Assembly (NCBI GenBank): GCA_963771275.1
Contig: CAVYSW010000003.1
Coordinates: 704,001 to 768,000, forward strand
Direction of reading: 5' to 3'
DNA from: an uncultured Gemmatimonadales bacterium
GTDB lineage: Bacteria > Gemmatimonadota > Gemmatimonadetes > Gemmatimonadales > GWC2-71-9
Length of the DNA stretch: 64,000 nucleotides
Below are positions 293-21,747 of this stretch, piece by piece. The notes under the pieces were generated by a model. That model made no database searches. It was not told the DNA's origin and worked only from the letters and a program-made list of their open reading frames with translations. The first letter of the stretch is position 1; every line of letters begins with the position of its first letter. Position numbers and translations under genes: made by a program.

Positions 293-423
293 GGTGAAAA
301 GTGAGCAGTGAAAAGTGAAAAGCGCTGCCGCTGCGGGCTCCTCGGAGCGTGGCCACCGCGAGGATTGGCCGTCGCAGAATGCCGGTTTCCCTTTTCCCGT
401 CCTTCTTTTCACTTTTCACTTTC
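293..423. repeat. Inverted tandem-heptamer element (GTGAAAA)n...(TTTTCAC)n, copy 1
   Basis: gtgaaaa gtgagca gtgaaaa gtgaaaa (294-321) and ttttcac ttttcac (406-419). Confidence 0.85.
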
Positions 424-445
424 TTCCACGTAGCGAGATGACGTC

Positions 446-2143
446 ATGAAACCCCGCTCGCCTCTCCTCCTCGCCGTCGCGCTCCTCGCCGCCGCCTGCG
501 GCCCCGCGCGATCCGGCTCCGCCCCGTACGACATCGTGATCGAGCACGGCCGCATCGTCGACGGAACGGGCTCCCCCTGGTACGCGGGCGATGTCGCGAT
601 CCGCGGCGGCCGGATCGCGGCCATCGGCCGCCTCGCCAACGCGCCCGCGACCGCCCGGATCGACGCGCGCGGCATGGTCGTGGCCCCCGGGTTCATCGAC
701 ATGCTGGGCCAGTCGGATCTCACGATCCTCGTGAACCCGCACCTTCCCTCCAAGATCTTCCAGGGGATCACCACCGAGATCACGGGCGAAGGCGGCTCGG
801 TGGCGCCGCTCAACGACACGATCGTCACGGCGGATCACGTCTACTACGAGCACCTCGGCATCACCCCCGACTGGCGCACGCTCGACCAGTATTTCGCGCG
901 GCTCGAGCGCCAGGGAATCGGCATCAACTTCGCGACCTACGTGGGGGCGACGCAGGTGCGGCGGATGGTGCTGGGGGACGTCGATCGGGCGCCCACCCCC
1001 GAGCAGCTCCAGCAGATGCAGGACTTGGTGCGCGACGGCATGCGGCAGGGCGCCGTCGGGGTCTCGACTTCGCTGCAGTACGCGCCCGCGCCCTACGCCA
1101 GCACCGCGGAGTTGATCGCACTCGCCTCCGCGGCGGCGGAGTTCGGCGGCATCTACGCCACGCACCTGCGCTCGGAGGGCAACGCCGTGCTGCCGGCGCT
1201 CGACGAGGCAATTCGCATCGGCCGCGAGGCGAGCATCCCGGTCGAGATCTGGCACCTCAAGGCGGCCGGCAAGTCCAACTGGGGCCGGATGGGCGAGATC
1301 GTGGCGAAGATCGACAGCGCCAGGCAGAGCGGCGTGGACGTCACCGCCGACACCTACGCCTACACCGCCTGGTTCAACTCGCTGTCGGCGTTCGTGCCCC
1401 CGTGGGCCCACGACGGGGGAGACGCCAAGATGCTGGAGCGGCTCAAGGACCACGAGATGCGCCAGCGCATTCGCCAGGACATGCTCACGCCCAGCGCCGA
1501 ATGGGACAACGAGTGGCAGGAGATCCCGGGGCCGGAGGCGGTACTGATCAGCGCCGTCCACAACCCGGCGCTGCTGCCGCTTCAGGGGAAACGCCTCGAC
1601 GAAGTCGCGCAGCTCCGCGACAAGGACGCGATCGAGACGTTGCTCGACATTCTCGTCGCGGACGACGCGTACACGTCGGCCGCCGTCTCCGGCATGGCGC
1701 AGCCGGACGTCACGCTCGCCCTTGTCCAGCCGTGGACCTCGGTGGACAACGACTCCCAGGGAACGGCGCCGGACGGCGTGCTCGGCAAGGAGCATCCGCA
1801 CCCCCGCGCATACGGCACGTTCCCGCGCATCCTCAGGAAGTACGTGCGCGAGGAGCACGTGCTCACGCTGGAGGACGCGATCCGGAAGTTCAGCGCGCTG
1901 CCGGCCCAACGGATGCGCCTGACGGACCGCGGCGTGCTGAAGCAGGGCATGTGGGCGGACGTCGTCGTATTCGACCCGGAGCGGATCCGCGACCTCGCGA
2001 CCTTCGAGAACCCCAACCAGCTCTCGGTCGGGATGGCGTACGTGCTGGTGAACGGCGTACCCGTGATTGCGGGCGGCAGGGCGACAGACGCGCTGCCGGG
2101 GAAGGTGCTGCGGGGACCGGGGTACCGGGAGAGCGAGCGGTAG
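446..2143 (+). CDS. N-acyl-D-amino-acid deacylase (amidohydrolase family), lipoprotein
   Basis: Lipobox LLAAAC; GRIVDGTGSPW, VVAPGFIDM, HPHPRAYGTFPR, GMWADVVVFDP motifs. Confidence 0.9.
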   Translation: MKPRSPLLLAVALLAAACGPARSGSAPYDIVIEHGRIVDGTGSPWYAGDVAIRGGRIAAIGRLANAPATARIDARGMVVAPGFIDMLGQSDLTILVNPHLPSKIFQGITTEITGEGGSVAPLNDTIVTADHVYYEHLGITPDWRTLDQYFARLERQGIGINFATYVGATQVRRMVLGDVDRAPTPEQLQQMQDLVRDGMRQGAVGVSTSLQYAPAPYASTAELIALASAAAEFGGIYATHLRSEGNAVLPALDEAIRIGREASIPVEIWHLKAAGKSNWGRMGEIVAKIDSARQSGVDVTADTYAYTAWFNSLSAFVPPWAHDGGDAKMLERLKDHEMRQRIRQDMLTPSAEWDNEWQEIPGPEAVLISAVHNPALLPLQGKRLDEVAQLRDKDAIETLLDILVADDAYTSAAVSGMAQPDVTLALVQPWTSVDNDSQGTAPDGVLGKEHPHPRAYGTFPRILRKYVREEHVLTLEDAIRKFSALPAQRMRLTDRGVLKQGMWADVVVFDPERIRDLATFENPNQLSVGMAYVLVNGVPVIAGGRATDALPGKVLRGPGYRESER

Positions 2144-2167
2144 CGCCGATTCATCGGCAGAGTCGAG

Positions 2168-2189
2168 GGGGCGGCCCGCGGGCCGCCCC
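2168..2189. terminator. Perfect 22-bp GC palindrome between convergent genes, probable terminator
   Basis: ggggcggcccgcgggccgcccc; no clear U-tract. Confidence 0.5.
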
Positions 2190-2212
2190 TGTCGCTGCCG
2201 GCTGTCGATCTC

Positions 2213-2500
2213 CTACCGTCTCATCTCCCATGGCACGTTGACGATCTTCCACTCGCCGTTCCACTTCGCGACCTGGAGATAGTCGATCCAGTCGCGTGCG
2301 ACCACCTTCACGACCGCCGCGTTGCGGAACCCGTCGAGAATCGTGACGTCACGCTGCCGCTCGGCATCACCCGTGTACCAGCCCTCGATGTAGTCGAGCG
2401 CGGTGGCCCGAATCGCCGCCGAATCGGCCGCCGCCTGCGCGCGGAGCGTGGAAGGGAGCCCGGTACACGCAACGAGCAGAGCAATCAGGATGGAACGCAT
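2213..2500 (-). pseudogene. Secreted NTF2-like (SnoaL/lumazine-binding-2) protein with apparent in-frame internal deletion
   Basis: ATALDYIEGWYTGDAER is joined directly to QRDVTILD...WIDYLQVAKWNGEWKIVNV; the central part expected for the family is missing. Confidence 0.6.
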
Positions 2501-2596
2501 TGGTGATCTCCGGGAATGGTCGCTACGGACTCAACGGGAGGCCCGGCGCGGAGGTTTCGGATGCGGAGCCGGACCACGGCGGGCCCCGCTCGGGTG

Positions 2597-3439
2597 CTAC
2601 AGCGGAATCGAGAGGTCGAGCCGGATGCTCACCGCGCGGGCGGAGTGGGTGAGGGCGCCGATCGAGATGTAGCGCGCTCCAGCCCGGGCGTAGGCCGCAG
2701 CGGACTCGGGCGTGATGCCGCCCGACGCCTCGATCGCGACGCCGGGACCGACCCGTCGCACCCAGGCGGCCACGCGCTCCGGCGCCTGGTTGTCGACCAG
2801 CACGCGGCGCGCGCCGGCCGCCAGCGCCGCTGCGAGCTGGGCATCGCTCTCCACCTCGACCGTGACGGGCGTGTCGGCGGGCACCGCCGCCAGCACCTCG
2901 CGCAGCTCCCGGCCGCCCCGCGCCAGCAACTGCCAATGGTTGTCCTTCCAGAGCACCGCATCCGCCAGCGAGAGGCGGTGATTGACCCCGCCGCCCGTGC
3001 GGACGGCGTACTTCTCGAGTGCCCGGAGACCGGGCGTCGTCTTGCGCGTGTCGGTGATCTCGGCGCCCGTTCCGGCGACCGCGTCCACCGCCCGCCGGGT
3101 GAGCGTCGCGATCCCGCTCAGCCGCTGCAGGAAGTTGAGCGCCACCCGCTCACCGGCGAGCAGCGCACGGGCGCGCCCGCGCACGATCGCGATGACGCCG
3201 CCCGGAGCGGCGCGCGCGCCGTCCGGGACCTGCTCCGTGAATTCGACGGTGGGATCGATCTGGCGAAACACCCCGCGCGCCACCGGGCAGCCGGCCACGA
3301 CGCAGGACTCTTCGGCAATGAACCGGCCGACGGCGGGGGTGTCCGCAAGCGCTCCGAGCAGCGCGGTGGTGACGTCGCGGGACGCGGCATCCTCCGCGAG
3401 CGCCCGCCGGACTTCGCCTTGGCCGAGGTCGTCAGCCAA
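2597..3439 (-). CDS. nadC: Quinolinate phosphoribosyltransferase (nicotinate-nucleotide diphosphorylase)
   Basis: ERVALNFLQRLSGIAT, DTRKTTPGLR, NHRLSL, KDNH, EASGGIT, ISIGALTHS. Confidence 0.97.
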   Translation of the reverse strand: MADDLGQGEVRRALAEDAASRDVTTALLGALADTPAVGRFIAEESCVVAGCPVARGVFRQIDPTVEFTEQVPDGARAAPGGVIAIVRGRARALLAGERVALNFLQRLSGIATLTRRAVDAVAGTGAEITDTRKTTPGLRALEKYAVRTGGGVNHRLSLADAVLWKDNHWQLLARGGRELREVLAAVPADTPVTVEVESDAQLAAALAAGARRVLVDNQAPERVAAWVRRVGPGVAIEASGGITPESAAAYARAGARYISIGALTHSARAVSIRLDLSIPL

Positions 3440-4397
3440 TCGCGAGCATCCGGCCGATGGCGCGCCGGGCCCGGGCGGCGGTTTCCTCCGGCACCGTCAC
3501 CCGGTGCTTCAGGTCCCGCAACGAGTCGCGGAGCTTCTCCAGCGTGATCAGCTTCATGTAGTGGCACTCGGCTTCTTCGGCCACCGCATAGAACGTCTTC
3601 CGGGGGTTGTCTTTGCGCAGCCGGTGGAGCACCCCGGTCTCGGTCGCGATCACGAAGGTCTTCGCGTCGGACGCGCGCGCGCGCTGCATCATCTGCTCCG
3701 TCGAGCAGACGTGCATCCGGTTGCCGTTGAGTGATCCTTCGTGATTGAGGTAGTAGAGCGCGCTCGAGATGCAGCCGCATTCCGGGTGGATCAGCAGCTC
3801 GGCGTCCGGCATCTCCCGGCGCTTGGCCTCCACCGCGTCCGGCGTGAGCCCCGCGTGCACGTGGCATTCGCCCAGCCAGATGTCGATGTCCCGGCCCGTG
3901 ACTTCCTTGACGTAGTTCCCGAGAAAGAAATCGGGCAAGAACAGCACCGGGACGCCGGGGGGAAGCGACTTGACGATCGCGACCGCATTGCCCGACGTGC
4001 AGCAGTAGTCCGCCTCGGCCTTCACCGCCGCGCTGGTGTTGACGTAGCACACGACGAGGCCGTCCGGGTGCTGATCGCGCCAGCGCCGCACGTCGCGCGC
4101 CTGGATCGTGTCGGCGAGCGAGCAGCCCGCCGCCGGGTCGGGGATGAGCACCGTCTTCCCCGGGTTCGAGATCGCGGCCGTCTCCGCCATGAAGTACACG
4201 CCGCACAGCACGATCAGGTCGCCGTCGACCTGGGTGCCCTGCCGGGCGAGCTTCAGCGAATCGGCGACGACGTCCGCAAGGTCCTGGATCTCCGGGATCT
4301 GATAGTTGTGCGACAGAATCACGGCGCCGCGCTCGGCCTTGAGCGAGCGGATCTCCGCGATGAGGGCGGCGGTATCCGAGGGGGCGACCGTCGTCAT
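3432..4397 (-). CDS. nadA: Quinolinate synthase
   Basis: ILSHNYQ, CGVYFMAETA, AGCSLAD, YVNTSA, CHVH, HPEC, C.YMKLITL. Confidence 0.97.
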   Translation of the reverse strand: MTTVAPSDTAALIAEIRSLKAERGAVILSHNYQIPEIQDLADVVADSLKLARQGTQVDGDLIVLCGVYFMAETAAISNPGKTVLIPDPAAGCSLADTIQARDVRRWRDQHPDGLVVCYVNTSAAVKAEADYCCTSGNAVAIVKSLPPGVPVLFLPDFFLGNYVKEVTGRDIDIWLGECHVHAGLTPDAVEAKRREMPDAELLIHPECGCISSALYYLNHEGSLNGNRMHVCSTEQMMQRARASDAKTFVIATETGVLHRLRKDNPRKTFYAVAEEAECHYMKLITLEKLRDSLRDLKHRVTVPEETAARARRAIGRMLAIG

Positions 4398-4483
4398 AGG
4401 CTGAGAAACGTAGGAGGAGAAGGCATGGAGCGGTACCCTCCGCCGGGGGGGAGGGTTCCGCGCCGTCCGCCGCCCCCCCCCGC

Positions 4484-5044
4484 TCAGGAGGCCAGCGCCT
4501 CGATCTCCTTCGCCGCGCGGTCGAGGATCTCGCCGATCTGCTTGGCGCGCTCGACGTCGTCGCCCAGTCGCCAGGCCGCCTTGTAGGCCTGCGAGACGAC
4601 GCGTCCCACGGCGCGGTTCACCTCCGGCATCGGCTCGCTTACCACACGCTCGATCGTGTCCGCGATCCGCTCGAAGATGTCCTCCACCGTGCTCTTATGC
4701 TCGTCGAGAAACGCGCGGCCGGCGTCGGTGACCTCGTAGACCTTCTTCCCCTCGACGTCCTTCGCCGTGACCAGGCCCTCGTCCTCGAGCCACTGCAGCG
4801 TGGGGTAGACCGTGCCGGGCGAGGGCTTGTAGCAGCCGCGCGTCCGCTCCTCCAGCGCTTTCATCACTTCGTAGCCGTGCATCGGCTTGTCGCGCAGCAG
4901 CTTGAGGATCACGTACTTCATGTCACCGGACTCGAACCACTGCCCGCGCCAGCGATGACCGCGATGGCCGCGGGCCTGGGTCCCCGCGCCAAACCCGAAG
5001 CCGAACGGGAACCCGAAGAAGTCCCAATCAGAGCGCCTCGTCAT
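4484..5044 (-). CDS. PadR family transcriptional regulator
   Basis: ILKLLRDKPMHGYEVMK...PSPGTVYPTLQWLEDEG...KKVYEVTDAG. Confidence 0.93.
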   Translation of the reverse strand: MTRRSDWDFFGFPFGFGFGAGTQARGHRGHRWRGQWFESGDMKYVILKLLRDKPMHGYEVMKALEERTRGCYKPSPGTVYPTLQWLEDEGLVTAKDVEGKKVYEVTDAGRAFLDEHKSTVEDIFERIADTIERVVSEPMPEVNRAVGRVVSQAYKAAWRLGDDVERAKQIGEILDRAAKEIEALAS

Positions 5045-5060
5045 ATATCCTCCGACATTA

Positions 5061-5112
5061 CGTAAGATGTATCGACAAGATACATCTTACGATATATCGC
5101 GGTAGCAGTCAA
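5061..5112 (-). promoter_or_regulatory. sigma70-like promoter of padR overlapped by palindromic operator(s)
   Basis: Minus strand TTGACT (5112-5107), 17 bp, TAAGAT (5089-5084); perfect 13-bp inverted repeat cgtaagatgtatc-N5-gatacatcttacg (5061-5091); palindrome cgatatatcg (5090-5099). Confidence 0.75.
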
Positions 5113-5126
5113 GCGACCCCGTGGCC

Positions 5127-5160
5127 TTGACGGCAGTGTATCATACTGATATCATATAGC
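5127..5160 (+). promoter_or_regulatory. sigma70-like promoter of the SPFH operon with a TGATATCA palindrome over the -10
   Basis: TTGACG (5127-5132), 17 bp, TATCAT (5150-5155); tgatatca at 5147-5154. Confidence 0.7.
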
Positions 5161-5185
5161 TACCAACCCTTGCTGAGGAAACTCC

Positions 5186-6055
5186 ATGATCCGCGAGATC
5201 AAGCACGACGCGCAGTCCGGCCTCGTCTGGCTGCTGGGCCTCATTCTGGCGACGGGGGCCGACATCTTCGCGTTCGTGCGGTCGATCCAGCTGCAGCAGG
5301 TGCCGCTCATCGTCGCGGCGATCGTCGCGTTCGTCGTCCTGATGATCCTGTTCGGCGGCCTGTTCGTCGTGCACCCCAACGAAGCCAAGGTATTGCAGCT
5401 CTTCGGGCGTTACGTCGGCACCGTGCACGAGCCCGGGCTCAGGTTCGCCAATCCGTTCTTCACCAAACGGAAGATCTCCGTGCGGGTCCGCAACTTCGAG
5501 ACGACCAAGCTCAAGGTGAACGACAAGCGCGGCACCCCGATCGAGATCGCGGCGGTCGTGGTCTGGAAGGTCGTCGACAGCGCCGAGGCGTTCTTCGAGG
5601 TGGACAACTTCGAAGACTACATCCACGTCCAGAGCGAATCCGCGGTCCGGGGGATGGCAACCGACTATCCCTACGACACGTACACCGAGGGCGAGGTCTC
5701 GCTCACCGGCCACCTCAGCGAGATCGCGGAGCGCCTGCAGAAGGAGATCCAGGACCGGCTGGAAAAGGCGGGCATCAAGGTGCTCGAGGCCCGGATCACC
5801 CACCTGGCCTACGCACCGGAGATCGCGGGGCCCATGCTCCAGCGCCAGCAGGCGACCGCGATCATCGCGGCCCGGCAGAAGATCGTGGAGGGCGCGGTCG
5901 GCATGGTCGAGATGGCCCTCGAGATGCTCAGCAAGCAGAACATCGTCCGGCTCGACGAGGAGCGAAAGGCTGCGATGGTGAGCAACCTGCTCGTCGTGCT
6001 GTGTTCCGACCGCGCCGCGACGCCGGTGGTGAACGCCGGCTCGCTCTACACGTGA
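5186..6055 (+). CDS. SPFH (band 7) domain membrane protein
   Basis: Two N-terminal TM segments; [49 protein letters not shown]. Confidence 0.93.
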
Positions 6056-6078
6056 CGGGGGCAGGGCGGTGAGGCGAC

Positions 6079-6273
6079 GTGGCTGAGCGGAAGGCGCTGC
6101 TGATTCGGATCGATCCCCGGGTTCACGAGGCACTCGAGCGGTGGGCCCGGGACGAGTTGCGGAGCGTGAACGCGCAGGTCGAGTTCGCGCTGCGGAGCGC
6201 GCTGCAGCGGGCGGGGAAGCTCCCGGCCGAGCGGACGGACGGACGGACGGTAGGCGAGGGATCGCCGGGCTGA
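6079..6273 (+). CDS. Arc/ribbon-helix-helix DNA-binding protein
   Basis: RKALLIRIDPRVHEALERWARDELRSVNAQVEFALR; usual partner downstream of this SPFH type. Confidence 0.85.
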   Translation: MAERKALLIRIDPRVHEALERWARDELRSVNAQVEFALRSALQRAGKLPAERTDGRTVGEGSPG

Positions 6274-6344
6274 TGCCCCGCATCCCGGGAACGAGAGCGG
6301 CCCCGGGGCGGGGCGCGAACGCGGAGTACGACTCGGAGAACGAC

Positions 6345-7250
6345 ATGGAGCACGCCCTCACGCTGGACCGGGTGACCAAGGCCTTCGGGGACCTGCGGGC
6401 GGTGGACGAGATCTCGCTCGCCGTGCCCCGCGGCACGATCTACGGCTTCCTCGGCCCGAACGGCGCCGGGAAGACCACGGCCCTCCGGATGATCATGAGC
6501 ATCCTCTACCCCGACGCGGGGACCATCGAGGTGCTCGGCCACCAGAACCCGGAGGCGGTGAAGGACCGCCTCGGGTACCTGCCCGAGGAAAAGGGCCTGT
6601 ACAAGAAGATGAAGACGGCTGAGCTGGTCACCTACTTCGGCCGGCTGAAGGGCCTGCCCGCCGCCGTGGCCAATCGCCGGGCGCGGGACATGCTCGGCCG
6701 CTTCGGGCTCGGCGACTGGACCGACAAGAAGTGCGAAACACTCTCGAAGGGAATGAGCCAGAAAGTGCAGATCCTCGCCACGCTGATCCACGAGCCCGAG
6801 CTGGTGATCCTCGACGAGCCGTTCTCGGGGCTCGACCCGGTGAACGTGGACGTCGTACGGGACCTGATCCTCGAGATGAAGCGGGACGGCCGCACGGTGA
6901 TCTTCTCCACCCACGTGATGGAGCAGGCCGAGAAGATCTGCGATGCAATCCTGCTCATCGACCGTGGCCGGAAGGTGCTCGACGGCCCGCTCGCCGAGGT
7001 GAAATCAGGTGGTCCCCGGACGATCGTGCTGGATTATGACGGCGACGGGAGCGTGCTGCGCTCGCTGCCTCGGGTGGCCCGTGTCAACGACTCCGGCAAG
7101 CAAGCCGAGCTGACACTCGCGGACGGCGCCGATCCGCAGGAGGTGCTGCGCCTGCTGGTCGGTCGCCTCATCATTCGCCGGTTCGACACCCGCGAGCCGT
7201 CACTCCACGAGATCTTCGTCCGGGCGGTGGGAGGGCACAGCGATGCGTAA
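6345..7250 (+). CDS. ABC-2 type transporter ATP-binding protein
   Basis: GPNGAGKTT, LSKGMSQK, LDEPFSGLDP, FSTH; start taken at MEHAL after GGAG. Confidence 0.95.
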   Translation: MEHALTLDRVTKAFGDLRAVDEISLAVPRGTIYGFLGPNGAGKTTALRMIMSILYPDAGTIEVLGHQNPEAVKDRLGYLPEEKGLYKKMKTAELVTYFGRLKGLPAAVANRRARDMLGRFGLGDWTDKKCETLSKGMSQKVQILATLIHEPELVILDEPFSGLDPVNVDVVRDLILEMKRDGRTVIFSTHVMEQAEKICDAILLIDRGRKVLDGPLAEVKSGGPRTIVLDYDGDGSVLRSLPRVARVNDSGKQAELTLADGADPQEVLRLLVGRLIIRRFDTREPSLHEIFVRAVGGHSDA

Positions 7251-8535
7251 GCTGTGGCTCGTCGCCCAGCGCGAGTTCCTCGAGAACGTGCGCACCAAGA
7301 GCTTCTGGATCGGGATCCTCATCTTCCCGTTGATCCTGACGCTCAGCGTCGTCATGCCGGCCGTGCTGGAGAAGACGCGGAAGGCGCGCCAATTCGCGGT
7401 GCTGGACCGCTCGGGTTGGGTGCTCGACGCCGTCCGGCCGCAGCTCGCCGGGGCGGAGCGGCGGTTCACCCTCGTCGAGACGACGCTCGCTCCCGACGCT
7501 CCCGCCGCCGAGGACAGCCTCAATCGGCGCGTGCGCGACGAGGAGCTCTTCGCCTACTTCATCATCGGCCCGGACCCGGTCGGGGGGAGCGCCGGGTCAC
7601 AGTACCTCTCGCGCAACCTCACCGACAGCGACCTGCGCGAGTGGTTCGGCGGGGCGGTCACGGCCGCGGTCCGGGCGCGACGGCTGGAACGGGAGCACAT
7701 CGACTCGGCGGTGGCCGCGTGGATCCAGGACCCGCTCCGCTTCGCGGTGCGCAAGGTGAGCGGCGCGGGCGAGGCAGAGGAGGTGACGGCGCGGGATCGT
7801 CTGCGGCAATGGGCACCGCTGGTGTTCGTCTACCTCCTCTGGGTGGCGGTATTCTCGATCTCCCAGATGTTGCTCACCAACACCGTAGAGGAGAAGTCCA
7901 ACCGCATCATCGAGGTGCTGCTTTCGTCGGTCTCGCCGGTCCAGCTGATGGCGGGCAAGATCGTGGGCATTGCGCAGACGGGCTTCACTATCATCACCGC
8001 GTGGATCGTGGCCTTCTTCGCGATCACGAAGTTCGTACCCGGATGGCTGGGGGTACCGACCACCATCGATCTCTCCGTGCTGACGAACGACCCGGTCTAC
8101 CTGACGTCATTCGTCGCGTACTTCCTGCTCGGTTATCTCCTGTTCGCCGCGATGCTCGTGGGGATCGGCGCGGTGTGCAACACCCTGAAGGAAGCGCAGA
8201 ATCTGATGGGGCCTATCACGATCCTGCTGGTGCTCCCGCTGCTCGCGATGGTGCCCATCGGGAGGGATCCCAACGGCACCCTGGCGCAGGTGCTGTCGTT
8301 CATCCCGCCGTTCACGCCGTTCGTGATGATGAACCGGGCGGCGGGGCCGCCGGCACTCTGGGAATACGTCGCGACCACCGCGCTGCTGCTGGTGTCGATC
8401 GCGCTCGCCCTGTGGGCGGCGGCCAAGGTGTTCCGCATTGGCGTGCTGCTCACCGGCAAGCCCCCCAAGCTGGGGCAGATCCTGCGGTGGATCCGCGCGC
8501 CGGTGGGGACGGTGGTGGTGCGGCGGGAACGCTAG
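7243..8535 (+). CDS. ABC-2 type transporter permease (NatB-like)
   Basis: EEKSNRIIEVLLSSV...MAGKIVG, multiple TM segments, IPPFTPFVM. Confidence 0.92.
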   Translation: MRKLWLVAQREFLENVRTKSFWIGILIFPLILTLSVVMPAVLEKTRKARQFAVLDRSGWVLDAVRPQLAGAERRFTLVETTLAPDAPAAEDSLNRRVRDEELFAYFIIGPDPVGGSAGSQYLSRNLTDSDLREWFGGAVTAAVRARRLEREHIDSAVAAWIQDPLRFAVRKVSGAGEAEEVTARDRLRQWAPLVFVYLLWVAVFSISQMLLTNTVEEKSNRIIEVLLSSVSPVQLMAGKIVGIAQTGFTIITAWIVAFFAITKFVPGWLGVPTTIDLSVLTNDPVYLTSFVAYFLLGYLLFAAMLVGIGAVCNTLKEAQNLMGPITILLVLPLLAMVPIGRDPNGTLAQVLSFIPPFTPFVMMNRAAGPPALWEYVATTALLLVSIALALWAAAKVFRIGVLLTGKPPKLGQILRWIRAPVGTVVVRRER

Positions 8536-8582
8536 CCCCACGCCGGAGGCTCCGCGGAGCCGCGCCGCGCAGGCCTCCGGCG

Positions 8583-9059: not shown

Positions 9060-9179
9060 TGGGACCCTCCAGTTGAAACCCGAGGCGGCTACCTTCGTAT
9101 TCAAACTTACGGCCCGTCGGCGCCCGGGCCAGGCACCCCAGGTGGCGGCCAAACCGGAGTTACGCCCAAGGACCAAGCC

Positions 9180-12582: not shown

Positions 12583-12667
12583 GTGGGAAGTGAAGAGTGA
12601 ACAGTGAGAAGTGAAAAGAGGCTCCATGCCGGACCTTCTTTTCACTTTTCACTTTTCACTTTTCACT
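12583..12667. repeat. Inverted tandem-heptamer element, copy 2 (between convergent genes)
   Basis: gtgggaa gtgaaga gtgaaca gtgagaa gtgaaaa ... (ttttcac)x4. Confidence 0.9.
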
Positions 12668-12677
12668 ACCGGTCAGC

Positions 12678-13658
12678 TCACCGCTCTTCCCAGAACGCCC
12701 CCCGCTCGCGCTCCGGCACGGTCGCCGAGACCTCCGTCTTGCGCTTGTTGCGCATGATCTCGATGCGGATCTGGTCGCCCGGCTCGTAGGACCGCAGGAT
12801 CCTGACCGCGTGTGACGAGCTCGTCGGCACCCGGCCGCCGATCCGGAGGATCACGTCGCCGCTCTTGAGACCGAGGAGGGAGTCTTTCGGGGCGCGCACG
12901 ACCAGCAGCCCCTCGGTCGTCCCGAAGTAGCTCCCCAGGTCGGCGTCGAGACTCGTCAGCTCCATGTCCGACCAGCGATCGCCGGAGCCCACGGTGATGA
13001 ACACGCTTCCAAGCGGGCCCTCCTGCATCCTCAGCAGGGACCCGCGCGCCTGAAGCAGGGACCCGCGCGCCTGGTCGAGTGCGACCTTGTACGACCCCGT
13101 CAGCGTGCTGTCCGGCAGGTTGAAGCTGTAGGCGTAGCCGAAGTCGCTCATCTTGCGGGGAACGATCACCGCGTTCCTGGTCTCCTTGCCGCGCCGGTAC
13201 TGCACGCGGATCGAGTCACCCTCCTTTGCCTTGCGGACCAGCTCGAGCAGCCGGTTACCCGGTGCCTGATCGCCTTTCGTGACCGCGAGGCGCTCGTCAT
13301 TCAGCTTGATGATGATGTCTCCCGCCCGCAGTCCGGCGTTGTCGGCCGGGCCGTCGGGGGTCACCGCCTGCAGCGTCGCCCCGATCGAGTCGGTGGCGGG
13401 GCTGCGCTCGGTCTGGAGGATCACGCCCAGGCGTGGCCGGTCACCGCCCGCGAGCGTAAACGCCATCGCCTCCGGCAGGGCCATCCTCAACCGCGTTGCC
13501 TCCGCCACGCCCAGCTTGCGCTGGATGTCGCGCATCTCCACTTCCAGTTGGCGCAGCCGTTGCTGCAGCTCGAGCCGCTGCTGCTCCGTCATCTGTTGCG
13601 CGCTCGCGCTGCCGGTGATCAGCAGCAGGCCGAGCGCGGCCAGCATGAACCGCTTCAT
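12678..13658 (-). CDS. Secreted tandem PDZ-domain protein without protease domain
   Basis: Signal peptide, coiled coil, PRLGV...VTPDGPADNAGLRAGDII and GLKSGDVILRIGG PDZ motifs. Confidence 0.85.
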   Translation of the reverse strand: MKRFMLAALGLLLITGSASAQQMTEQQRLELQQRLRQLEVEMRDIQRKLGVAEATRLRMALPEAMAFTLAGGDRPRLGVILQTERSPATDSIGATLQAVTPDGPADNAGLRAGDIIIKLNDERLAVTKGDQAPGNRLLELVRKAKEGDSIRVQYRRGKETRNAVIVPRKMSDFGYAYSFNLPDSTLTGSYKVALDQARGSLLQARGSLLRMQEGPLGSVFITVGSGDRWSDMELTSLDADLGSYFGTTEGLLVVRAPKDSLLGLKSGDVILRIGGRVPTSSSHAVRILRSYEPGDQIRIEIMRNKRKTEVSATVPERERGAFWEER

Positions 13659-13688
13659 GTGCTCCAGCTCCTTCCGTTTCCAGTCGGG

Positions 13689-14297
13689 CTAAAACCCGAC
13701 GTAAGACACCCTGGTGACGTGCGCGTTCACGAGCGCGTCCATCAGCTCCACTCGATTGCGCCACAGTCCCACGAGATCGCCCGATGTGTCGCCGCGGGTG
13801 TTCTCCTGCACGATCCCGGCGTCCACCAGCGCGATCCGGTCTTCGAGATCCGCGATGACGCCCGCCGCCCGCGCGTTGAGCACCCGGCCATCCGGCCCGT
13901 AGGAGCGGAGCGCGGCCTCCAGCTGCTGCGACTGACTCATCAGGGTCGCGAGCTCGGCCGCCGTGGCGGGCGCGCCCGGCGACGCGCTCCCCGCTCCGGT
14001 AACGAGCGCCCGCCCTCCGACCGCGAGCACGATCCCCGCCGCGACCGCCAACGCGCCCCATACCGCGCGCCGCACGCGCGCGGCGCGGCGCTCGCGCTCG
14101 GCCGCGGCCCGGACCTCCGGCCAGCGGTCCCGCGGCGGCCGCCGCGCCCCCAGCGCCCGCAGCGCCGCGACGCGGCGGTGCAGCAGATCGAGCTCGTGCT
14201 GGCAGCTCGGGCACTCGTCCAAGTGCCCGCGGGCCCACACCGAGCCCTCGCCATCCCGGACGGCGACCAGCTCAGCCATCGTGCAATGTTTGCGCAT
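13689..14297 (-). CDS. Putative anti-sigma factor (zinc-binding HxxxCxxC, single TM)
   Basis: GHLDECPSC motif, one TM segment, directly downstream of an ECF sigma. Confidence 0.8.
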   Translation of the reverse strand: MRKHCTMAELVAVRDGEGSVWARGHLDECPSCQHELDLLHRRVAALRALGARRPPRDRWPEVRAAAERERRAARVRRAVWGALAVAAGIVLAVGGRALVTGAGSASPGAPATAAELATLMSQSQQLEAALRSYGPDGRVLNARAAGVIADLEDRIALVDAGIVQENTRGDTSGDLVGLWRNRVELMDALVNAHVTRVSYVGF

Positions 14298-14301
14298 CTG
14301 C

Positions 14302-14838
14302 CTACTCCCCGCCGAGCCACCCGCGCAGACGCAGGTGCGCCCGCGCGAGCTGCGATTTCGAGAAGCTGACCGTCTTCCCCATCATCTCGGCGATATCCTC
14401 GTGTGTGTACCCCTCCACGTCGTGCAGCCAGACCACCGCCCGTGACGTCTCCGGCAGCCGCGTGAGCGCCGCCTCGAGGTCCAGCTGCAACCCCACATCG
14501 GCCACCGGCGAGCCGGCAACCGCGCCGTCCTCGGGCAGCTCGTCCGCGTCGCGGTAGCGCTCCCGCCGAATCCGCATCAGCGCCTTGCTCGCCGCGATCC
14601 GCTTGACCCATGCCGTGAGACTCCCAGGACCGGTGCCGCGAAACCCCCGGATGCTGCGGCACACCTCCAGGAACGTCTCCTGGAGCACGTCCTCGGCGTC
14701 CTCTTCCGCCCGGCAGATCCGGCGGGCACCTGTGTACACCATGCCTTCGTAGGCCCGGTACACGCGCTCCAAGGCGTCCAGATCGCCGCTCTTCGCCCGC
14801 TCGATTGCGATGTCGTCGAGGACGCCGCTCACCGCCAT
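14302..14838 (-). CDS. ECF RNA polymerase sigma factor
   Basis: DAEDVLQETF, WVKRIA, LHDVEGYTHEDIAEMMG..SKSQLARA. Confidence 0.93.
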   Translation of the reverse strand: MAVSGVLDDIAIERAKSGDLDALERVYRAYEGMVYTGARRICRAEEDAEDVLQETFLEVCRSIRGFRGTGPGSLTAWVKRIAASKALMRIRRERYRDADELPEDGAVAGSPVADVGLQLDLEAALTRLPETSRAVVWLHDVEGYTHEDIAEMMGKTVSFSKSQLARAHLRLRGWLGGE

Positions 14839-14898
14839 GTCCGCTCGCGTGTCACGGTCACAGAGATAGATGCGGGAACGGGGAGGAGGGTCGCAAGG

Positions 14899-14980
14899 GA
14901 GTGAAACGTGAGAAGTGAAAAGCAAGAAAAAAGGGGCCGTCGGCAGACCGGGCCCCAGTTCACTTTTCACGTTTCACTCT
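14899..14980. repeat. Inverted tandem-heptamer element, copy 3, enclosing the leuS terminator
   Basis: gtgaaac gtgagaa gtgaaaa ... agttcac ttttcac gtttcac. Confidence 0.85.
14927..14956 (-). terminator. Rho-independent terminator of leuS
   Basis: Minus strand GGGGCC...GGCCCC stem followed by TTTTTT. Confidence 0.75.
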
Positions 14981-14997
14981 GGCTCCCCGCGGCTCCC

Positions 14998-17445
14998 CTA
15001 CACCACGAGATTCACCAACCGGTCCTTCACGTAGATCGCCTTCAGTATCTGCTTGCCCTCAATGAACTTACGCACGGTCTCGTCGGCCTGCGCTCCGGCG
15101 ATCGCGTCCGCCTCCGCGATCCCGGGGGGCACGCGCAACCGGCCCCGGACCTTGCCGTTGACCTGCACCACCAGCTCCACCTCGTCGTCGGCCGCGAGCG
15201 CCGTGTCGTAGCTCGGCCACCGGGCCGCGAACACCGACTCCGTGTGCCCCAACCGTTCCCAGCATTCCTCGGCGAAGTGCGGCGCGAACGGCGCCAGCAT
15301 GATGACGAGCGGCTCCACCAGCTCCTGCCGCACCTCCCCCCGCTCCCCACCCTCCCGCCCCTGCCCCTCCTTCTTCAGCAGGTTCAGATACTCCATCAGC
15401 TTGGCGATGGCGGTGTTGTAGCGCAGCCCGGCGAGGTCGTCGGTCACGCCACGCACGGTCTGGTGCAGCTTGCGCCGCGCCTCCGCCGGCGCCGCACCCC
15501 CCGGCCCCACCTGGCCCACCAGCTCGAAGATCCGATCGAGGAACCGCCGCTGGCCCACGATGCCCTGGTCCCGGAAGTCCCCGCCCTCCTGGTATGGCCC
15601 GAGGAACATGAGGTAGAGGCGGAGCGTGTCGGCACCCCACTGTGCGATGTACTCGTCCGGCACCACGACGTTGCCCCGCGACTTGGACATCTTCGCTCCG
15701 TCCTTGACGATCGTGCCGTGCGCGCGGAACCGGGGAAACGGCTCGTCGAAGGGGAGGTGCCCGAGGTCGTGGAGCACCATGGTGATGAACCGGGCGTACA
15801 TCAGGTGCAGCACGGCGTGCTCGTTGCCGCCGATGTACGAATCCACCGGCAGCCACTGCTGCGTCAGCGCCGCGTCGAACGCCCGGTCGGCGAACGCGGT
15901 GGACGGATAGCGCAGGAAGTACCACGCGGAGTCGAGGAACGTGTCCGACACGTCGGTTTCCCGCCGCGCCCGCCCGCCGCACTGGGGGCAGGCCACGCGG
16001 TACCACTCCTCGTGGCGCGCGAGGGGCGAAACCCCGCTCTCGTCCGGCCGGTAGTCCTCGATCTCCGGAAGCCGCACCGGCAGGTCCCGTTCGGGCACCG
16101 GCACGATGCCACAGCGCTCGCAGTAGATGATCGGGATCGGCGGGCCCCAGTACCGCTGCCGCGAGATGCACCAGTCGTGCAGCCGGTACTGCACCCGGCC
16201 GGTGGCGAGCCCCTTCTCCGCCAGCCAGCGCGTGATGGCACCGACGGCCTCGACGCAGCCCATGCCGTCGAACCGGCCCGAATGCACGAGGACGCCGTCC
16301 CAGCCCGTGTAGAGCGCCGCGTCATCCCCGCTTGCGGGCCGCACCACCCGGGTGATCGGCAGGCCGAACGCGGTGGCGAACTCGTGATCCCGCTCGTCGT
16401 GCGCCGGCACGGCCATGATGGCCCCGGTGCCGTACTCCATCAGCACGTAGTCGGCGATCCAGATCGGCACCGTCTCGCCGGTCGCCGGATTGCGCGCGTA
16501 GGACCCGGTGAAGACGCCGGTCTTCTCCTTGGAGCCGACGCGGCGCGACACGATGTCCATGCGCTGCACGCGGCGGCGGTACGCGCTCACGTCGGACTGC
16601 CGCTCCGCCGCGGTGAGGCGATCCACCAGCGGATGCTCGGGCGCCAGCACCACGTAGGTCGCGCCGAACACCGTGTCGGGCCGGGTGGTGAATACCGTGA
16701 TCGCATCGCCCACCGGGGTCTGGAACACCAGCTCCGCGCCCTCGGAGCGGCCGATCCAGTTGCGCTGCAGCGTGCGCGTCGAGTCCGACCAGTCGAGGTG
16801 CTCGAGGTCGTCGAGCAGCCGCTCGGCGAACCGCGTGATCGCGAAGAACCACTGCTCCAGCACCCGCTGCGTCACCGCGGTCTCCGGGTGCCGCTCGCAG
16901 AAGCCGTTGATCACCTGCTCGTTGGCGAGCACGGTCTTGCACTCGGGACACCAGTTGACCGGCGCCTTCTTCTTGTACGCGAGGCCCGCCTTGAGCAGCT
17001 GCAGGAAGATCCACTGGGTCCACTTGTAGTACGCCGGGTCCGTCGTCGAGACCGCGTGGCCCCAGTGCACCATCAGGCCGACGCGGGTCAGCTGATCCCG
17101 GAACCGCGCGATGTTGCGCGGGATGAGCTGCGCGGGGTGCGTGTTGACCTTGAGCGCGTAGTTCTCGGAGTGGATCCCGAACGCGTCGAACCCGATGGGC
17201 TCGAACACGTCGTCCCCCGCCAGCCGCCGGTAGCGGCCGAAGATGTCGGCGCCCACGAAGGCGAACACGTTCCCGACGTGCAGGCCCTCGGCGGACGGGT
17301 ACGGGAACATCATGAGGTTGTAGAACGGCCGCGCCGCGCGGGTGACGTCGAGGGCGTTGGTGCCCCGCTCGACCCAGCGGCGCTGCCACTTCGCCTCGAC
17401 GGCGGCGGGATCGTACGACGTCGCGGACCCTCGGGAATCTGCCAT
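14998..17445 (-). CDS. leuS: Leucine--tRNA ligase
   Basis: [14 protein letters not shown] (HIGH), FTTRPDT editing domain, [23 protein letters not shown]. Confidence 0.98.
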
Positions 17446-17508
17446 AGCGCGATAATCTACAGCCGCTTGCCGCCCTTGTGTGCCCGCCGTACCTTACCCC
17501 GCGCCGCC

Positions 17509-19599
17509 ATGCCTACCGCGTCCCGCCTGCGCAATACGATCCTCGGCGTCTCCATTCCGACGACCGTCGTGGCGGTCGCCATCGGCGCCTGGCTCGCGAT
17601 GCAGCTCACGGCGGTCCCGGTGGAGCAGGCTGCGCTCGAGGGCGTCCGCCAGGTGAGCATCCGGGGCGCCGTCGACGTGACCACGTTTCTCGACGCGGCC
17701 CGGCGCGACCTGCGGCGGGTCGCCGCCGCTCCCAGCGTGGTCGCGGCGGCCCGCGAGGCGGGCGTCGAGGCGGTGCGGCGCGGCCTGACGGGTCTGAGCC
17801 CGGAGGTCCTCGAGGATCGCTTCGCCGAAAACCGCGCCCTGCTGCGCGATCCCGTGCTGCAGCGCTACCTCACCACCGTGCGCGACTCCTCCGAATTCGT
17901 GGAGCTGACGCTGACCGACCGCACCGGCCTCACCGCCCTCACGGCCGGCCAGCCGGTGGACTTCGTGCAGTCGGACGAGGAGTGGTGGCAGCAGGCGTTC
18001 GCCACCGGGAGCTACGTGGGACCGCCGCAGTTCGACGAGACGGCCGGCGCTGCGGCGCTCGACCTCGCCGTCCGGGTGGACGATCCCGCGACGGGGCGGC
18101 CGGTGGGCGTGTTGCGCGGCCCGATCCGTCTCGCGCGCCTCGCCGAGCGCCTGTCTGCGGAGTCCGAGGCGACCATCGTCGAGGTCGTGGACTCGGCCGG
18201 ACGGGTCGTGGCGACGCGCGACAGCAGCCGACTGCTCCGCATCTCCTCGCTCGCCGAGTGGTTCAACCGCGACGAGAGCGCCGTGGCGGGCCGCTTCACG
18301 ATCGCCGGGACCGGCCGCTGGGTGGTGGCCGCCGCGCCCACCGCGGGTGGCACCTGGTGGGTGCTGGCCCGAGAGCCGGAGCCCACGACGTTCCGGACCG
18401 CTAACGGCATCCGTCGGGTCATCACGATCTCGGCCGTCGTATTGCTCGTGGCGCTCCTCGGCGTCCTGGGCGTCGTCACCGGCTGGCTCGACCGGCGCGT
18501 CACCGGACCGGTGCGTGGCGCCGTCGAGGTCGCGACCCGGGTGGCGGGCGGCGATCTCACCGTCGAGGTCCCCCAGCTGACCGGGGGCGCGGGCGAAGCG
18601 GACGCGCTGCTCACGTCGTTCCGGACGATGGTCACGGAGCTCCGGGTCCTGGTGTCCGGGATCCGCGCGTCGGCGGAGGAGCTGGCCGCGATGGCGCAGC
18701 AGATCTCCGCGTCCACCGAGCAGATGTCGGCCTCGACCGAGGAGATGGCCGCGACCTCGCAGCGGCTCACCGATCAGGCCACGGAGCAGGCCGGCCAGGT
18801 GCGGAGCGCCGCCGGTGACGCGGAGCGGATCCTCTCGATCGCCACGCAGCTCGCCGCCGGGGCGCAGCTCGCCGCCGAGCGCAGCGGGGCGCTGCGCGAG
18901 ACCGCCGAGGGCAACCGCGTGCGGCTCGTGGCCGGGAGCGAGCAGCTGGCGCAGCTGGCCGCGGAGATCGAAAAGGGGGCGAGCGAGGCGACGCTGCTGG
19001 CCGGCCTCTCGGCCGAGATCCAGCAGTTCGTGACGCAGACGAGAGTCATCGCGACGCGGACCAACATGCTGGCGCTCAATGCGGCGATCGAAGCCGCGCG
19101 GGCCGGCGCCGAGGGCCAGGGCTTCGCGGTCGTCGCGGACGAGGTGCGGAAGCTCGCCAGCCAGGCCGCGCAGGCGGCCCAGACCACGTCGGACACCGTC
19201 GGCCGCGTGGTGCAGGGCATGACCGCCACGCGAGACCGGCTGGCGCGGCTCGCGCGCGAGAGCGTGGTGGTGCGCGGGATCGCGGACGGGGCGGCACGCG
19301 GGCTGGAGGAAGTGACCCAGCAGGCGGTGGAGGGGAACGCCTGGGCCGACGAAATCTCCAGCGCCGCCGGGGAGGCGAAGCTGCTCGTCCAGGAGATCAC
19401 CGAGCGGCTGCAGGGCATCGCGGCGGGGACCGAATCGGCCGTGGCGGCGATCGAGCAGATCGCCGCGGCCGCCGAGGAGCAGAGCGCCTCCACCGAGGAG
19501 GTCGCGAGCTCGGCCGCGCATCTGGCGGAGGCGTCCGAGCGGCTCAACGCCGGCGTGAGCCGGTTCCGACTGCTCGAAGGCTCCGGCTCGGGCGACTAG
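17509..19599 (+). CDS. Methyl-accepting chemotaxis protein (periplasmic Cache-like domain, HAMP, signalling domain)
   Basis: Two TM segments, [48 protein letters not shown]. Confidence 0.92.
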
Positions 19600-20552
19600 C
19601 GTCCGGCGCCGTTCACCGCTCCCCGGACGACCCCCTCGAGCAGCGCGTCGCGCACCGCGCCGCAGATCTCCAGCGCCACCCGTTCCTGCGCCTCTCCCGT
19701 GGATGCCGCCAGATGCGGCGTCAGCACCAGCCGTTCCGACCGGCGGAGCGGCGACTCCGCCGGCAGGGGCTCCGCACCGAACACGTCCAGCGCCGCGCCC
19801 GCGATGGCACCGCTTTCCAGCGCGCGGAGCAGGGCGGTCTCGTCGATCAGCCCGCCACGCGCCGTGTTGATCACCACGGCGGTCGGCTTCATGAGACGCA
19901 GGCGCCGAGCATCGAGCAGGTGCCGGGTCTCCTCGACGAGCGGCAGGTGCAGGGTCACCACGTCGGCGCCGGCGAGCAGCTCGTCGAGCGCCACCAACTC
20001 CACGCCCAGCTCGTGGCCCCGCGCAGCCGGAACGTAGGGGTCGTGGGCCATCAGCCGCATCCCGAACCCCCGGGCGATTCCCGCCACGTGGAGGCCGATC
20101 CGGCCGAGGCCCACGATCCCCAGCAGCTTGCCGTGGAGCTCGGCGCCGCCGAATGCCTTGCGGTCCCAGCCGCCCGACCGCATGCTCTGCGTCGCCCAGG
20201 GCACGCGGCGGACGAGCGCGAGCAGCAGGGCGAAGGTGTGCTCTGCCGCGCTCACCGTATTCGCGCCCGGCGTGTTGAGGACCACGATCCCGCGCCGCCT
20301 GGCCGCGGCGAGATCGATGTTGTCCACCCCCATGCCGGCCCGCGCGATCAGCTTGAGCCGCGCCCCGGCCGCGATCAGATCGGCGGTGACCTGCGTGTCG
20401 GATCGCACGAGCAGCGCGTCCGCCCGGGGCAGCTCCCGTCGGAGCGCCGTCGCGTCGCCGATCGCCGAGACGACCTCGAGCTCCGGCCGGGCCGTCAGCA
20501 GGGCGAGCCCCGCCTCGCCAATCCGGTCGCTCACCAGCACGACGTGGGTCAT
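19596..20552 (-). CDS. serA: D-3-phosphoglycerate dehydrogenase-like 2-hydroxyacid dehydrogenase (short form, no ACT domain)
   Basis: [46 protein letters not shown]. Confidence 0.8.
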
Positions 20553-21640
20553 CGGCACGCCCCCACGATCTGGCCGAGCAGCTCCGTGACCCCCGCGACC
20601 GTGTGGTCGCCCATGTGCCCGATGCGGATCGTGGAGTCCTTGAGCGGTCCGTAGCCCGATCCGATGATCCACCCGTCCGCCTTGAGTCGCTGCACGATCG
20701 GCCGGCTCTGCATGCCCTGCGGCACCGTCAGGCAGGACACCGTCCACGAGCGCCGGCCGCAGCGCGGCAGATAGCCGAAGCCGAGCCGCCCGCCGTCGCC
20801 GCTCACCCAGTCCTCCACCGTGCGGCGCATCGCGTCGTGCCGGTCCCAGCGCGCCACGACCCCGCCCTGCTGCTCGATCCGCGCGCATTGCGCCGCGAGC
20901 GCGTAGAACAGCGAGACCGCCGGCGTGTTGGTCGGCTGGCGCTCGGCAAACGCCTCCGCATAGGCCACGAGATCCAGGTAGGCGCCCCGTCCCGGCAGCT
21001 TGCGCGCCCGCTCGAGCATGCGGTCCGAGGCGACCCCCAGCGCGAGGCCCGGCGGCAAGGCGAGCGCCTTCTGCGAGCCGGTGAACACGAAATCGAGGCC
21101 CAGCAGGTCCGTCTCGACGGGCGAGCCGGCCAGCGACGTCACCGCATCCACCAGCAACAGGACGTCGTCGAACTCGTGCACGGCCGGTGCCAACTCCGCG
21201 AGCGGCGCGAGGGCGCCGGTCGACGTCTCCGAGTGGACGAGCGTGACCGCGTCGACTTCGGTCCGGAGCAGCGCGTCGCGCAGCATGTCCGGCTCCACGG
21301 TCTCGCCGGGGTTCACGTCGAGGCGCACGACGTCCAGCCCGCAGGCTCTGCCGATCGCCGCGAACCGCTCGCCGAAGGCGCCGCCCACCACCGACAGCAC
21401 GCGGTGCCGCACGCCGGAGCGGATCGCCATCTCCATGAACCCCGTCGCCGCGCACGTGCCGACCAGCACGCGCCGGCTCGTGCGGAACATGTCGCGCAGC
21501 GGCGTTTCGATGCCGGCGAGCAGGTCGACCATGGCCGAGCCGCGGTGCGGGATCATCGGCCGCAACATCGCCGCCAGCACGTCGGGATGCACTTCGGTGG
21601 GGCCGGGAAGGAAGAACCGGCCGAACGGGATAGGCGTCAT
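20549..21640 (-). CDS. Class V PLP aminotransferase (serine/alanine-glyoxylate type)
   Basis: PGPTEV, HSETSTG, VDAVTS, GSQKALALPPG, RIGHMG. Confidence 0.92.
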   Translation of the reverse strand: MTPIPFGRFFLPGPTEVHPDVLAAMLRPMIPHRGSAMVDLLAGIETPLRDMFRTSRRVLVGTCAATGFMEMAIRSGVRHRVLSVVGGAFGERFAAIGRACGLDVVRLDVNPGETVEPDMLRDALLRTEVDAVTLVHSETSTGALAPLAELAPAVHEFDDVLLLVDAVTSLAGSPVETDLLGLDFVFTGSQKALALPPGLALGVASDRMLERARKLPGRGAYLDLVAYAEAFAERQPTNTPAVSLFYALAAQCARIEQQGGVVARWDRHDAMRRTVEDWVSGDGGRLGFGYLPRCGRRSWTVSCLTVPQGMQSRPIVQRLKADGWIIGSGYGPLKDSTIRIGHMGDHTVAGVTELLGQIVGACR

Positions 21641-21660
21641 GGATGGCATGGGGGCATTTG

Positions 21661-21747
21661 GGAGAGTGAAAAGTGAGAAGTGAGAAGTGAAAAGAGAAGC
21701 CCCCAACGCAAACGGCTCTTCACTCTTCGCTTTTCACCCTTCACTCC
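21661..21747. repeat. Inverted tandem-heptamer element, copy 4
   Basis: gtgaaaa gtgagaa gtgagaa gtgaaaa ... tcttcac tcttcgc ttttcac ccttcac; overlaps the stop codon at 21741. Confidence 0.9.

Follow-up and report, generated by a model that had tools for sequence, protein, structure and literature searches.

Pairs of inverted tandem heptamer arms in a Gemmatimonadales genome and their association with four-helix-bundle genes of the PF05635 family

Results

Four hairpins with heptameric arms in the window

We analyzed a stretch of 64,000 nucleotides (the window) from the genome of an uncultured Gemmatimonadales bacterium (genome G000, 96.7% complete; the window is positions 704001-768000 of contig C3), in which a preliminary description had reported four copies of a dispersed hairpin element with arms made of inverted tandem heptamers. 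All four copies were found where they had been reported. The heptamer of these hairpins, here called unit A, reads GTGAAAA in the left arm and TTTTCAC in the right arm, and the parts of the copies are, in window coordinates:

294..321, + strand: copy 1, left, purine-rich arm with 4 units of unit A, 9 nt past the upstream gene's stop codon
322..384: copy 1, loop, GC-rich and with no relation to the other loops of the window
385..426, + strand: copy 1, right, pyrimidine-rich arm with 2 perfect (406-419) and approximately 4 degenerate units
12583..12617, + strand: copy 2, left arm with 5 units, 11 nt past the stop codon of an M14 peptidase gene
12618..12638: copy 2, loop of 21 nt
12639..12666, + strand: copy 2, right arm with 4 perfect units, 11 nt from the stop codon of a convergent gene for a PDZ protein
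14901..14928, + strand: copy 3, arm on the side of an extracytoplasmic function (ECF) sigma factor gene, with 3 units and 1 degenerate unit
14929..14956, - strand: copy 3, loop in which, on the leuS strand, six U follow a GC stem, by eye resembling a terminator
14957..14977, + strand: copy 3, arm on the leuS side with 3 units, 20 nt past the leuS stop codon
21666..21700, + strand: copy 4, arm on the side of an aminotransferase start, with 4 units and 1 degenerate unit
21701..21716: copy 4, loop of 16 nt
21717..21744, + strand: copy 4, second arm with 4 units

Three copies are located between co-oriented genes (copy 1, +,+; copies 3 and 4, -,-) and one, copy 2, between convergent genes, in agreement with the earlier report of both contexts. 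The right arm of copy 1 finishes approximately 20 nt ahead of an amidohydrolase start (446), the arm of copy 3 at 14901-14928 is the right arm when read along leuS, and the outermost unit of the second arm of copy 4 provides the stop codon of the nicotinate phosphoribosyltransferase gene (21741-21743, minus strand). The stems are stable (z of -2.4 to -8.5 in all 5 folds, with 0 of 200 shuffles equally stable in each). An Rfam search of window positions 1-23000 returned no family match, and a consensus terminator scan called none of copies 2-4.

A search pattern built post hoc from these hairpins matched 4 times in the window, compared with a maximum of 1 and a mean of 0.005 in 200 block shuffles, which is the enrichment over shuffled sequence that had been proposed as a check. 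Genome-wide, the same pattern gave 19 matches against 0, 0, 0, 1, and 0 in 5 shuffles of G000, so that the hairpins are members of a dispersed family.

Heptamer arrays form five unit families with one polarity each

An unbiased periodicity scan of G000 detected 181 arrays of period 7, 150 of them intergenic, and 19, 26, 3, and 7 arrays of periods 5, 8, 10, and 11, respectively. With a looser scan, 248 arrays were found outside gene interiors and grouped in five unit families, one of which is unit A; 13 arrays lie deep within called genes. The element spans a left, purine-rich run of approximately 4 units of 7 (or 8) bases and an inverted copy 5 to approximately 175 nt downstream, or 450-550 nt downstream where a four-helix-bundle (PF05635) gene intervenes. 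The most frequent arm size is 4 units (85/237 arms). A smaller family of G000 consists of G-rich 8-nt arrays, for which no filled cassette was found in this genome.

All 53 same-family inverted pairs with arms at most 200 nt apart show one polarity per family, no right-left neighbors occur within 200 nt in G000, and the window-hairpin pattern with its arm order reversed had 0 matches. Left arms are purine-rich in 54 of 69 cassettes and in 39 of 43 gene-less pairs of related genomes. From the purine-first order, the preliminary description had concluded that either strand can form a stem; however, stems would form on both strands whichever arm came first. The fixed polarity therefore stands as an observation in its own right and calls for a distinct explanation. 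Fifteen more sites combine the left arm of one family with the right arm of another.

Filled copies enclose PF05635/TIGR02436 genes

The element had been proposed to occur elsewhere in versions that enclose small genes for four-helix-bundle proteins, and such versions exist. On contig C4 of G000 (C4:9091-9589), the same unit-A arms flank a gene (C4:9190-9546) for a 118-amino acid four-helix-bundle protein that belongs to PF05635 (E 4e-27)/TIGR02436 and has 52% identity to its best match in other collections. The predicted model of this protein (pLDDT 96.8) has a fold similar to those of Xcc0516 (2GSC) and BT_0352 (2RLD), both with five chains, and more weakly similar to that of Avd (4DWL, TM 0.76). 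All 4 TIGR02436 genes of G000 above the cutoff are flanked by arms, each by those of a different unit, while a fifth, weak match has none; these cassettes account for 4 of the 5 heptamer families.

When other cargo was searched for in G000, 5 left-right neighbors were found 200-2500 nt apart. The 3 whose arms share a family enclose four-helix-bundle genes; the remaining 2, of mixed families, hold no open reading frame (ORF) of note and an ordinary thioesterase-like gene, respectively. The fourth filled copy was missed by this list because of an abutting gene-less pair, and the 22 right-left neighbors at the same distances are adjacent elements on either side of host genes. In one filled cassette the right arm has grown to approximately 23 units instead of the usual 4 (C3:424512-424669). 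Unit-A sites are dense within 10 kb of the unit-A cassette (C4:7083-16673), a hint of local spread.

The PF05635/TIGR02436 family is present in 51 of 61 genomes of the order. From approximately 206 matches in these relatives, 130 were sampled with the best scores favored, and the 4 loci of G000 were added; of the 129 loci with full flanks, 80 carried arms, compared with 6 of 536 short control genes. In other collections, after exclusion of 7 of 80 loci for short flanks, arms were found at 34 of 73 loci (33 of 72 outside Gemmatimonadota) and in 0 of 48 control windows. The protein family is linked to the arms within and beyond the phylum. The net charge is positive in 124 of 134 proteins of the family. 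In a tree of the 69 proteins whose arms match within one mismatch (65 of the 134 being left out), 23 of the 24 cassettes with 8-nt units fall on a single branch (3 changes against a mean of 20 in shuffles; SH-aLRT 95). Upstream of 90 cassette genes examined, an A is present at -11 in 47 and a T at -7 and -6 in 43 and 41, respectively, and no Shine-Dalgarno signal was detected, so that the genes look leaderless. Because of these features, the cassette genes probably carry their own promoter.

Units of gene-less pairs partly match the cassettes of the same genome

We compared units in the 14 related genomes that have both gene-less pairs and cassettes. The unit of 11 of the 43 gene-less pairs is identical to that of a cassette of the same genome, whereas 2000 draws of cassettes from other genomes gave 0.5 and 1.0 on average, and 5 and 6 at most. 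Allowing one mismatch, 19 of the 43 match, against means of 4.1 and 7.5 (maxima 16 and 21). The unit of a gene-less pair thus partly matches the cassettes of its own genome.

Units turn over at conserved junctions

To follow individual sites, the four window junctions were compared by eye with those of related genomes. At the leuS-sigma junction (copy 3), whose flanks are conserved across congeners, arms of three other units are present in 4 of 6 congeners and arms are lacking in 2, with unit A in none. Between the copy 3 loop and the spacer of G001, which has no arms, there is a weak similarity (its score being reached by 18 of 2000 shuffles) that, as one of 6 comparisons, is suggestive only. 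At the copy 4 junction, the arms are A-like in 5 of 6 congeners, the unit having drifted, and belong to another family in one; in G031 the junction is bare (13 nt). All 3 congeners with the same neighbor of copy 2 carry other units, and at this junction G005 (locus L072) has arms of an approximately 15-nt unit, possibly a fused 7 + 8. Copy 1 has A-like arms in G005 and arms of another family past the same upstream gene in G003, and its arms were not seen in G004, G001, and G002, where the gene order differs. Units are therefore replaced while the junction stays.

The preliminary description had read the window copies as possibly empty versions of gene-bearing cassettes. In its full form, this explanation holds that an arm-gene-arm unit inserts at junctions by means of a mobilizer and later loses its interior, that hot spots are hit again by other units, and that arms split around host sequence are the outer arms of two neighboring elements. 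Filled, gene-less, and bare alleles of one junction do occur among the relatives: of 34 cassettes of related genomes mapped to a G000 junction (some mappings being to paralogues), 2 lie opposite gene-less pairs and 2 opposite filled copies, one of these sites being filled in both genomes with a different unit and the opposite gene orientation. The 15 mixed-family sites also agree with repeated insertion, as does the copy 4 allele of G003, which has a longer loop with a promoter-like stretch (by eye). Most of the other 34 cassettes face bare junctions or other genes in G000, and a DNA search with the C4 region across 5 congeners retrieved few syntenic junctions. At the window's own four junctions, no filled allele was seen among the relatives compared.

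Other features expected of emptied cassettes were sought in the loops. Gene-less loops of at least 25 nt, considered as remnants of cassette interiors, scored at best 23 against the four G000 interiors, with shuffled means of 23-24, and this origin was rejected because the similarity is no better than that of shuffled loops. The loops are also unrelated among themselves across the five families, as had been reported for the spacers, save for one homologous pair (C4:11670 and C10:830069) that is probably a duplicated junction. No target duplication was found: the longest word common to both flanks at 68 sites does not exceed that of 2000 random controls.

Some junctions are recurrent sites of cassettes. 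In ten related loci (L118, L125, L127, L129, L130, L132, L158, L161, L171, and L178), a four-helix-bundle gene is found, in both orientations, upstream of a gidA/mnmG-like gene (named by eye from its translation start), a long-lived hot spot that has no cassette in G000 (C3:1170353). Two further junctions (C10:686339 and C10:797468) are bare in G000, with 20-40 nt, and filled in several relatives by cassettes of different units.

Split pairs surround conserved codons of host genes

Pairs also occur inside the reading frames of rarA, rsmA, pdxA, and alaS. In 8 of 30 rarA loci, the two arms occupy consecutive linkers, the left arm first (that of G016 was identified by eye), and surround approximately 40 conserved host codons, with the unit being each genome's own. 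A linker-1 segment of 41 amino acids is shared by 19 of 20 arm-free loci and the arm-carrying G004, G016, G020, G025, and G056. Therefore, the arm appears to have been substituted in place in these loci. In rsmA, a split pair surrounds a conserved motif in 6 of 30 loci, again with its own unit per genome, and 2 loci have a single arm; in pdxA, a local hairpin is present in 2 of 30 loci and a split pair in none. The unit of the rarA and rsmA pairs, whose arms lie in separate linkers, is often the one used by a cassette of the genome. The loops of the rarA and rsmA pairs are host-derived, being conserved coding DNA, and under the emptied-cassette explanation these matched pairs need repeated double insertion with symmetric loss. 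The complete small hairpins within rarA linker 2 of G033, G050, and G056 are in line with that explanation. Altogether, with the alleles at shared junctions in its favor and the loops, the flanks, the split pairs, and the window's junctions against it, we regard insertion followed by loss of the interior as unlikely; the idea of empty cassettes is partly supported, two junctions being filled in relatives and gene-less in G000.

A single clade of the 8 split-pair rarA genes was rejected on a C-terminal tree (AU p=0.017), and the middle parts of the three intruding rarA rows resemble the other rarA type. Whether they have one origin or several, both rarA arms are rewritten together. All 3 translated unit-A arms have the one change that abolishes an in-frame stop, a position at which 2 of 31 other arms are changed (a comparison selected post hoc, p=0.002). 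In G000 itself, rarA (C4:6451-7865; L226:1452-2865, minus strand) is broken by a one-base frame shift, a sequencing error or a real change, that lies outside the arm, a few codons past the left one.

The arms lie near stop codons, with stems that show no G·U bias

Among junctions of at least 80 nt, with gene positions from a simple custom gene caller, paired sites are over-represented at convergent junctions (24/68 versus 150/1382, p=2e-7) and under-represented at divergent ones (4/68 versus 379/1382, p=2e-5). In 81 of 88 cases the start of an arm is at most 15 nt from a stop codon, and in 35 the arm includes the stop codon. These positions speak for an explanation that does without the protein, in which arrays grown by slippage gain an inverted partner by template switching and are kept by the host as 3'-end stabilizers similar to repetitive extragenic palindromic (REP) sequences, as bidirectional roadblocks or as modulators of translation, the four-helix-bundle gene being a passenger that exploits the hairpins. 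The distance to the stop codon is that at which E. coli REPs stall ribosomes, according to the available part of PMC12306157, the stems are stable, and the inverted heptamer pairs of Xanthomonas hold their sites across species in the portion of PMC4692102 at hand. The same explanation leaves without cause the small number of units per genome and their match to cassette units, the fixed polarity of each family, and the link between period and protein clade; selected RNA stems would moreover show a G·U bias, and sites are bare in some congeners. We consider it improbable.

The G·U bias was analyzed from stem mismatches on the sense strand. There were 22 G·U versus 26 A·C in 31 co-oriented empty pairs and 40 G·U versus 59 A·C in 69 cassettes, and there is thus no excess of G·U. 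Therefore, strand-symmetric formation at the DNA level fits better than selection of RNA stems.

The hairpins had also been proposed to act as RNase III-type processing sites. In this explanation they would work as intervening sequences (IVSs) of rRNA do, with cleavage of the stem splitting the transcript or releasing the loop. The stems have sufficient length for this, and in the excerpt of PMC4990558 consulted the 23S IVS of Coxiella burnetii combines heptamers, the same protein family and an RNase III cut. Of the 61 genomes of the order, a single one gave an RNase III (PF14622) match, located on a short contig, with a model that in a positive control matched 8 of 14 known genomes, and no match was obtained in G000 with three models (PF14622, TIGR02191, and PF00636). 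The order appears to lack RNase III, judging from these profile searches, although it may have a divergent one. The 23S gene of G000 (2977 nt for 2925 model positions) has no room for a large insert, and pairs lie inside protein reading frames. Because the enzyme was found in a single genome and the stems have no G·U bias, RNase III processing is highly improbable here, and this part of the preliminary description is not upheld.

Discussion

Relation to known elements

The element misses defining tests for IVSs of rRNA, REP sequences, miniature transposable and Rickettsia palindromic elements, diversity-generating retroelements, and CRISPR arrays. A close parallel is an IVS of rRNA: the Coxiella burnetii IVS is inserted in helix 45 of the 23S gene, encloses an S23p/PF05635 gene in terminal inverted repeats and has tandem heptamers in variable number in its 5' stem, where RNase III cuts (PMC4990558, from the part available). 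The filled copy on C4 likewise encloses a PF05635 gene, whereas the window copies are gene-less, and in both systems terminal inverted repeats give a long stem. However, the arms described here lie between or inside protein genes and not in an rRNA gene, dozens of gene-less pairs occur per genome in several unit families and may have loops of host DNA, and RNase III was not found in 60 of 61 genomes.

Dispersed intergenic tandem heptamers that often form inverted pairs are shared with heptameric simple repeats, a descriptive class without a defined mechanism to which the short tandemly repeated repetitive (STRR) sequences of cyanobacteria also belong. In what is accessible of PMC4692102, G-rich intergenic heptamer repeats are described in Xanthomonas and Nostoc, with 70 and 75 inverted pairs per genome, near gene ends, in Xanthomonas; intergenic tandem heptamers are also described in Beggiatoaceae (PMC4679880, in part). 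The accessible text of both sources reads these heptamers as quadruplexes or regulatory sites and names no cognate protein. In contrast, unit A is unable to form a quadruplex, and congeners swap units at one site.

REP sequences and the composite elements BIME (bacterial interspersed mosaic elements) and REPIN (REP doublets forming hairpins) resemble our pairs in being short multi-copy palindromes near stop codons, enriched between convergent genes. REP repeats are linked to RAYT (Y1) transposases flanked by the repeats. The arms analyzed here differ in being tandem 7-8-mers of five unrelated unit families with no loop consensus, and the arrays have no adjoining Y1 transposase (0/3 loci). [quoted passage not shown] The cassette protein shares the fold of Avd of diversity-generating retroelements, a basic pentameric barrel that touches structured RNA (bioRxiv 10.1101/2023.10.23.563531 and PMC10053308, as far as these are accessible), but no reverse transcriptase, template, or variable repeat adjoins the gene and no RVT_1 match was obtained in G000 (template and variable repeats were not separately searched). 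A CRISPR array had been dismissed from the start, rightly so: each element has only two arms and one loop, with no regular repeat-spacer array and no Rfam match. By analogy, the element behaves like an ORF-bearing IVS freed from rRNA, with a resemblance to the Xanthomonas heptamer pairs.

The literature consulted, mostly non-subscription, holds no account that ties PF05635 genes outside rRNA to genome-wide pairs of heptamer arms. New here are four units with four proteins in one genome, the match of units between cassettes and sites, the tracking of the period with a protein clade, and the combination of no RNase III found with no G·U bias.

A model for writing of the arms in place

We interpret the element as a pair of arms and not as a fixed insert. 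The explanation that we favor, and to which we would give about an even chance, is that arm pairs are written or refreshed in place at the DNA level, with the specificity set by a cognate protein ring. The cassette protein would be an Avd-like basic ring made from its own leaderless promoter. Rings such as TRAP can read tandem repeats with one unit per subunit, and the cassette ring is predicted to bind its cognate tandem unit in a similar manner, approximately one unit per subunit, on single-stranded nucleic acid. Template switching is known to correct quasi-palindromes. At the DNA level, a bound ring would bias slippage of strands during synthesis and template switching by fold-back, or else conversion between arrays. 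Arms would thus arise and be refreshed in place around resident DNA, both changing jointly, a new cassette could take over an old site, and the arms that survive selection would be those located at stop codons and in flexible linkers of proteins. The four hairpins of the window would be gene-less sites of the unit-A protein encoded at C4:9190-9546. A benefit to the host, such as 3'-end protection or a block of read-through or translation, is possible and would be secondary.

Several observations weigh against this model. No DNA-writing enzyme was identified in the searches of G000 for reverse transcriptases (RTs) and Y1 transposases: there are zero RVT_1 (PF00078) matches, and arrays are absent within 500 nt of all 3 Y1 (PF01797) genes. 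One of the heptamer families of G000 lacks a cassette, the arm pair is below the threshold in 49 of the 129 genes of relatives and in 39 of the 73 cross-phylum genes, and the correlation of unit distance with protein distance is weak overall (Mantel rho 0.17); plain physical linkage can explain why unit and period track the protein tree. With respect to unit matching, 24 of the 43 gene-less pairs have no cassette unit within one mismatch, congeners alone give 3 of 18 exact matches, a single genome contributes 11 of the 43 pairs, possibly with duplicates, and most genomes of the sample are incomplete and the relatives are not independent. In rarA, linker 1 has 42, 54, and 59 amino acids in three other loci (it is longer in G003 and G017), the conserved length elsewhere may result from selection on the protein, and the rsmA arms are mostly net insertions. 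Finally, the closeness of the arms to stop codons could indicate a process at the level of RNA or translation.

Implications

The genome of G000 offers a ready specificity matrix of four proteins, four units, and dozens of gene-less sites. The model would join three subjects: the PF05635 family, which is structurally solved, functionless and related to Avd; the abundance of tandem heptamers in bacterial genomes, for which there is no explanation; and the question of how IVSs of rRNA that carry an ORF arose. The apparent lack of RNase III removes the sole recorded processing role, and therefore the attention shifts to writing at the DNA level. A bolder form of the model, which we put forward only tentatively, is that PF05635 rings are the specificity factors of an RT-free repeat-writing system. 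Each variant would read one 7- or 8-base unit and steer host polymerases to write matched inverted arrays, overwriting those of rivals, in a selfish spread of its own binding sites that extends over codons of essential genes and so edits protein linkers. If true, such RT-free writing would account for much of the excess of heptamer repeats in bacteria, with the rRNA IVS as a special case. Should the proteins read tandem units with a code that can be programmed, they would form a new class of modular binders of nucleic acids and also a source of protein-linker evolution.

Other genes of the window

Farther along the window, a res subunit gene (PF04851) lies beside an N-6 DNA methylase gene (PF02384) at 33776-38097 (+ strand), an ordinary restriction-modification pair, and at 53252-60930 (- strand) there are two genes in tandem for resistance-nodulation-division (RND) transporters of the AcrB/AcrD/AcrF family.

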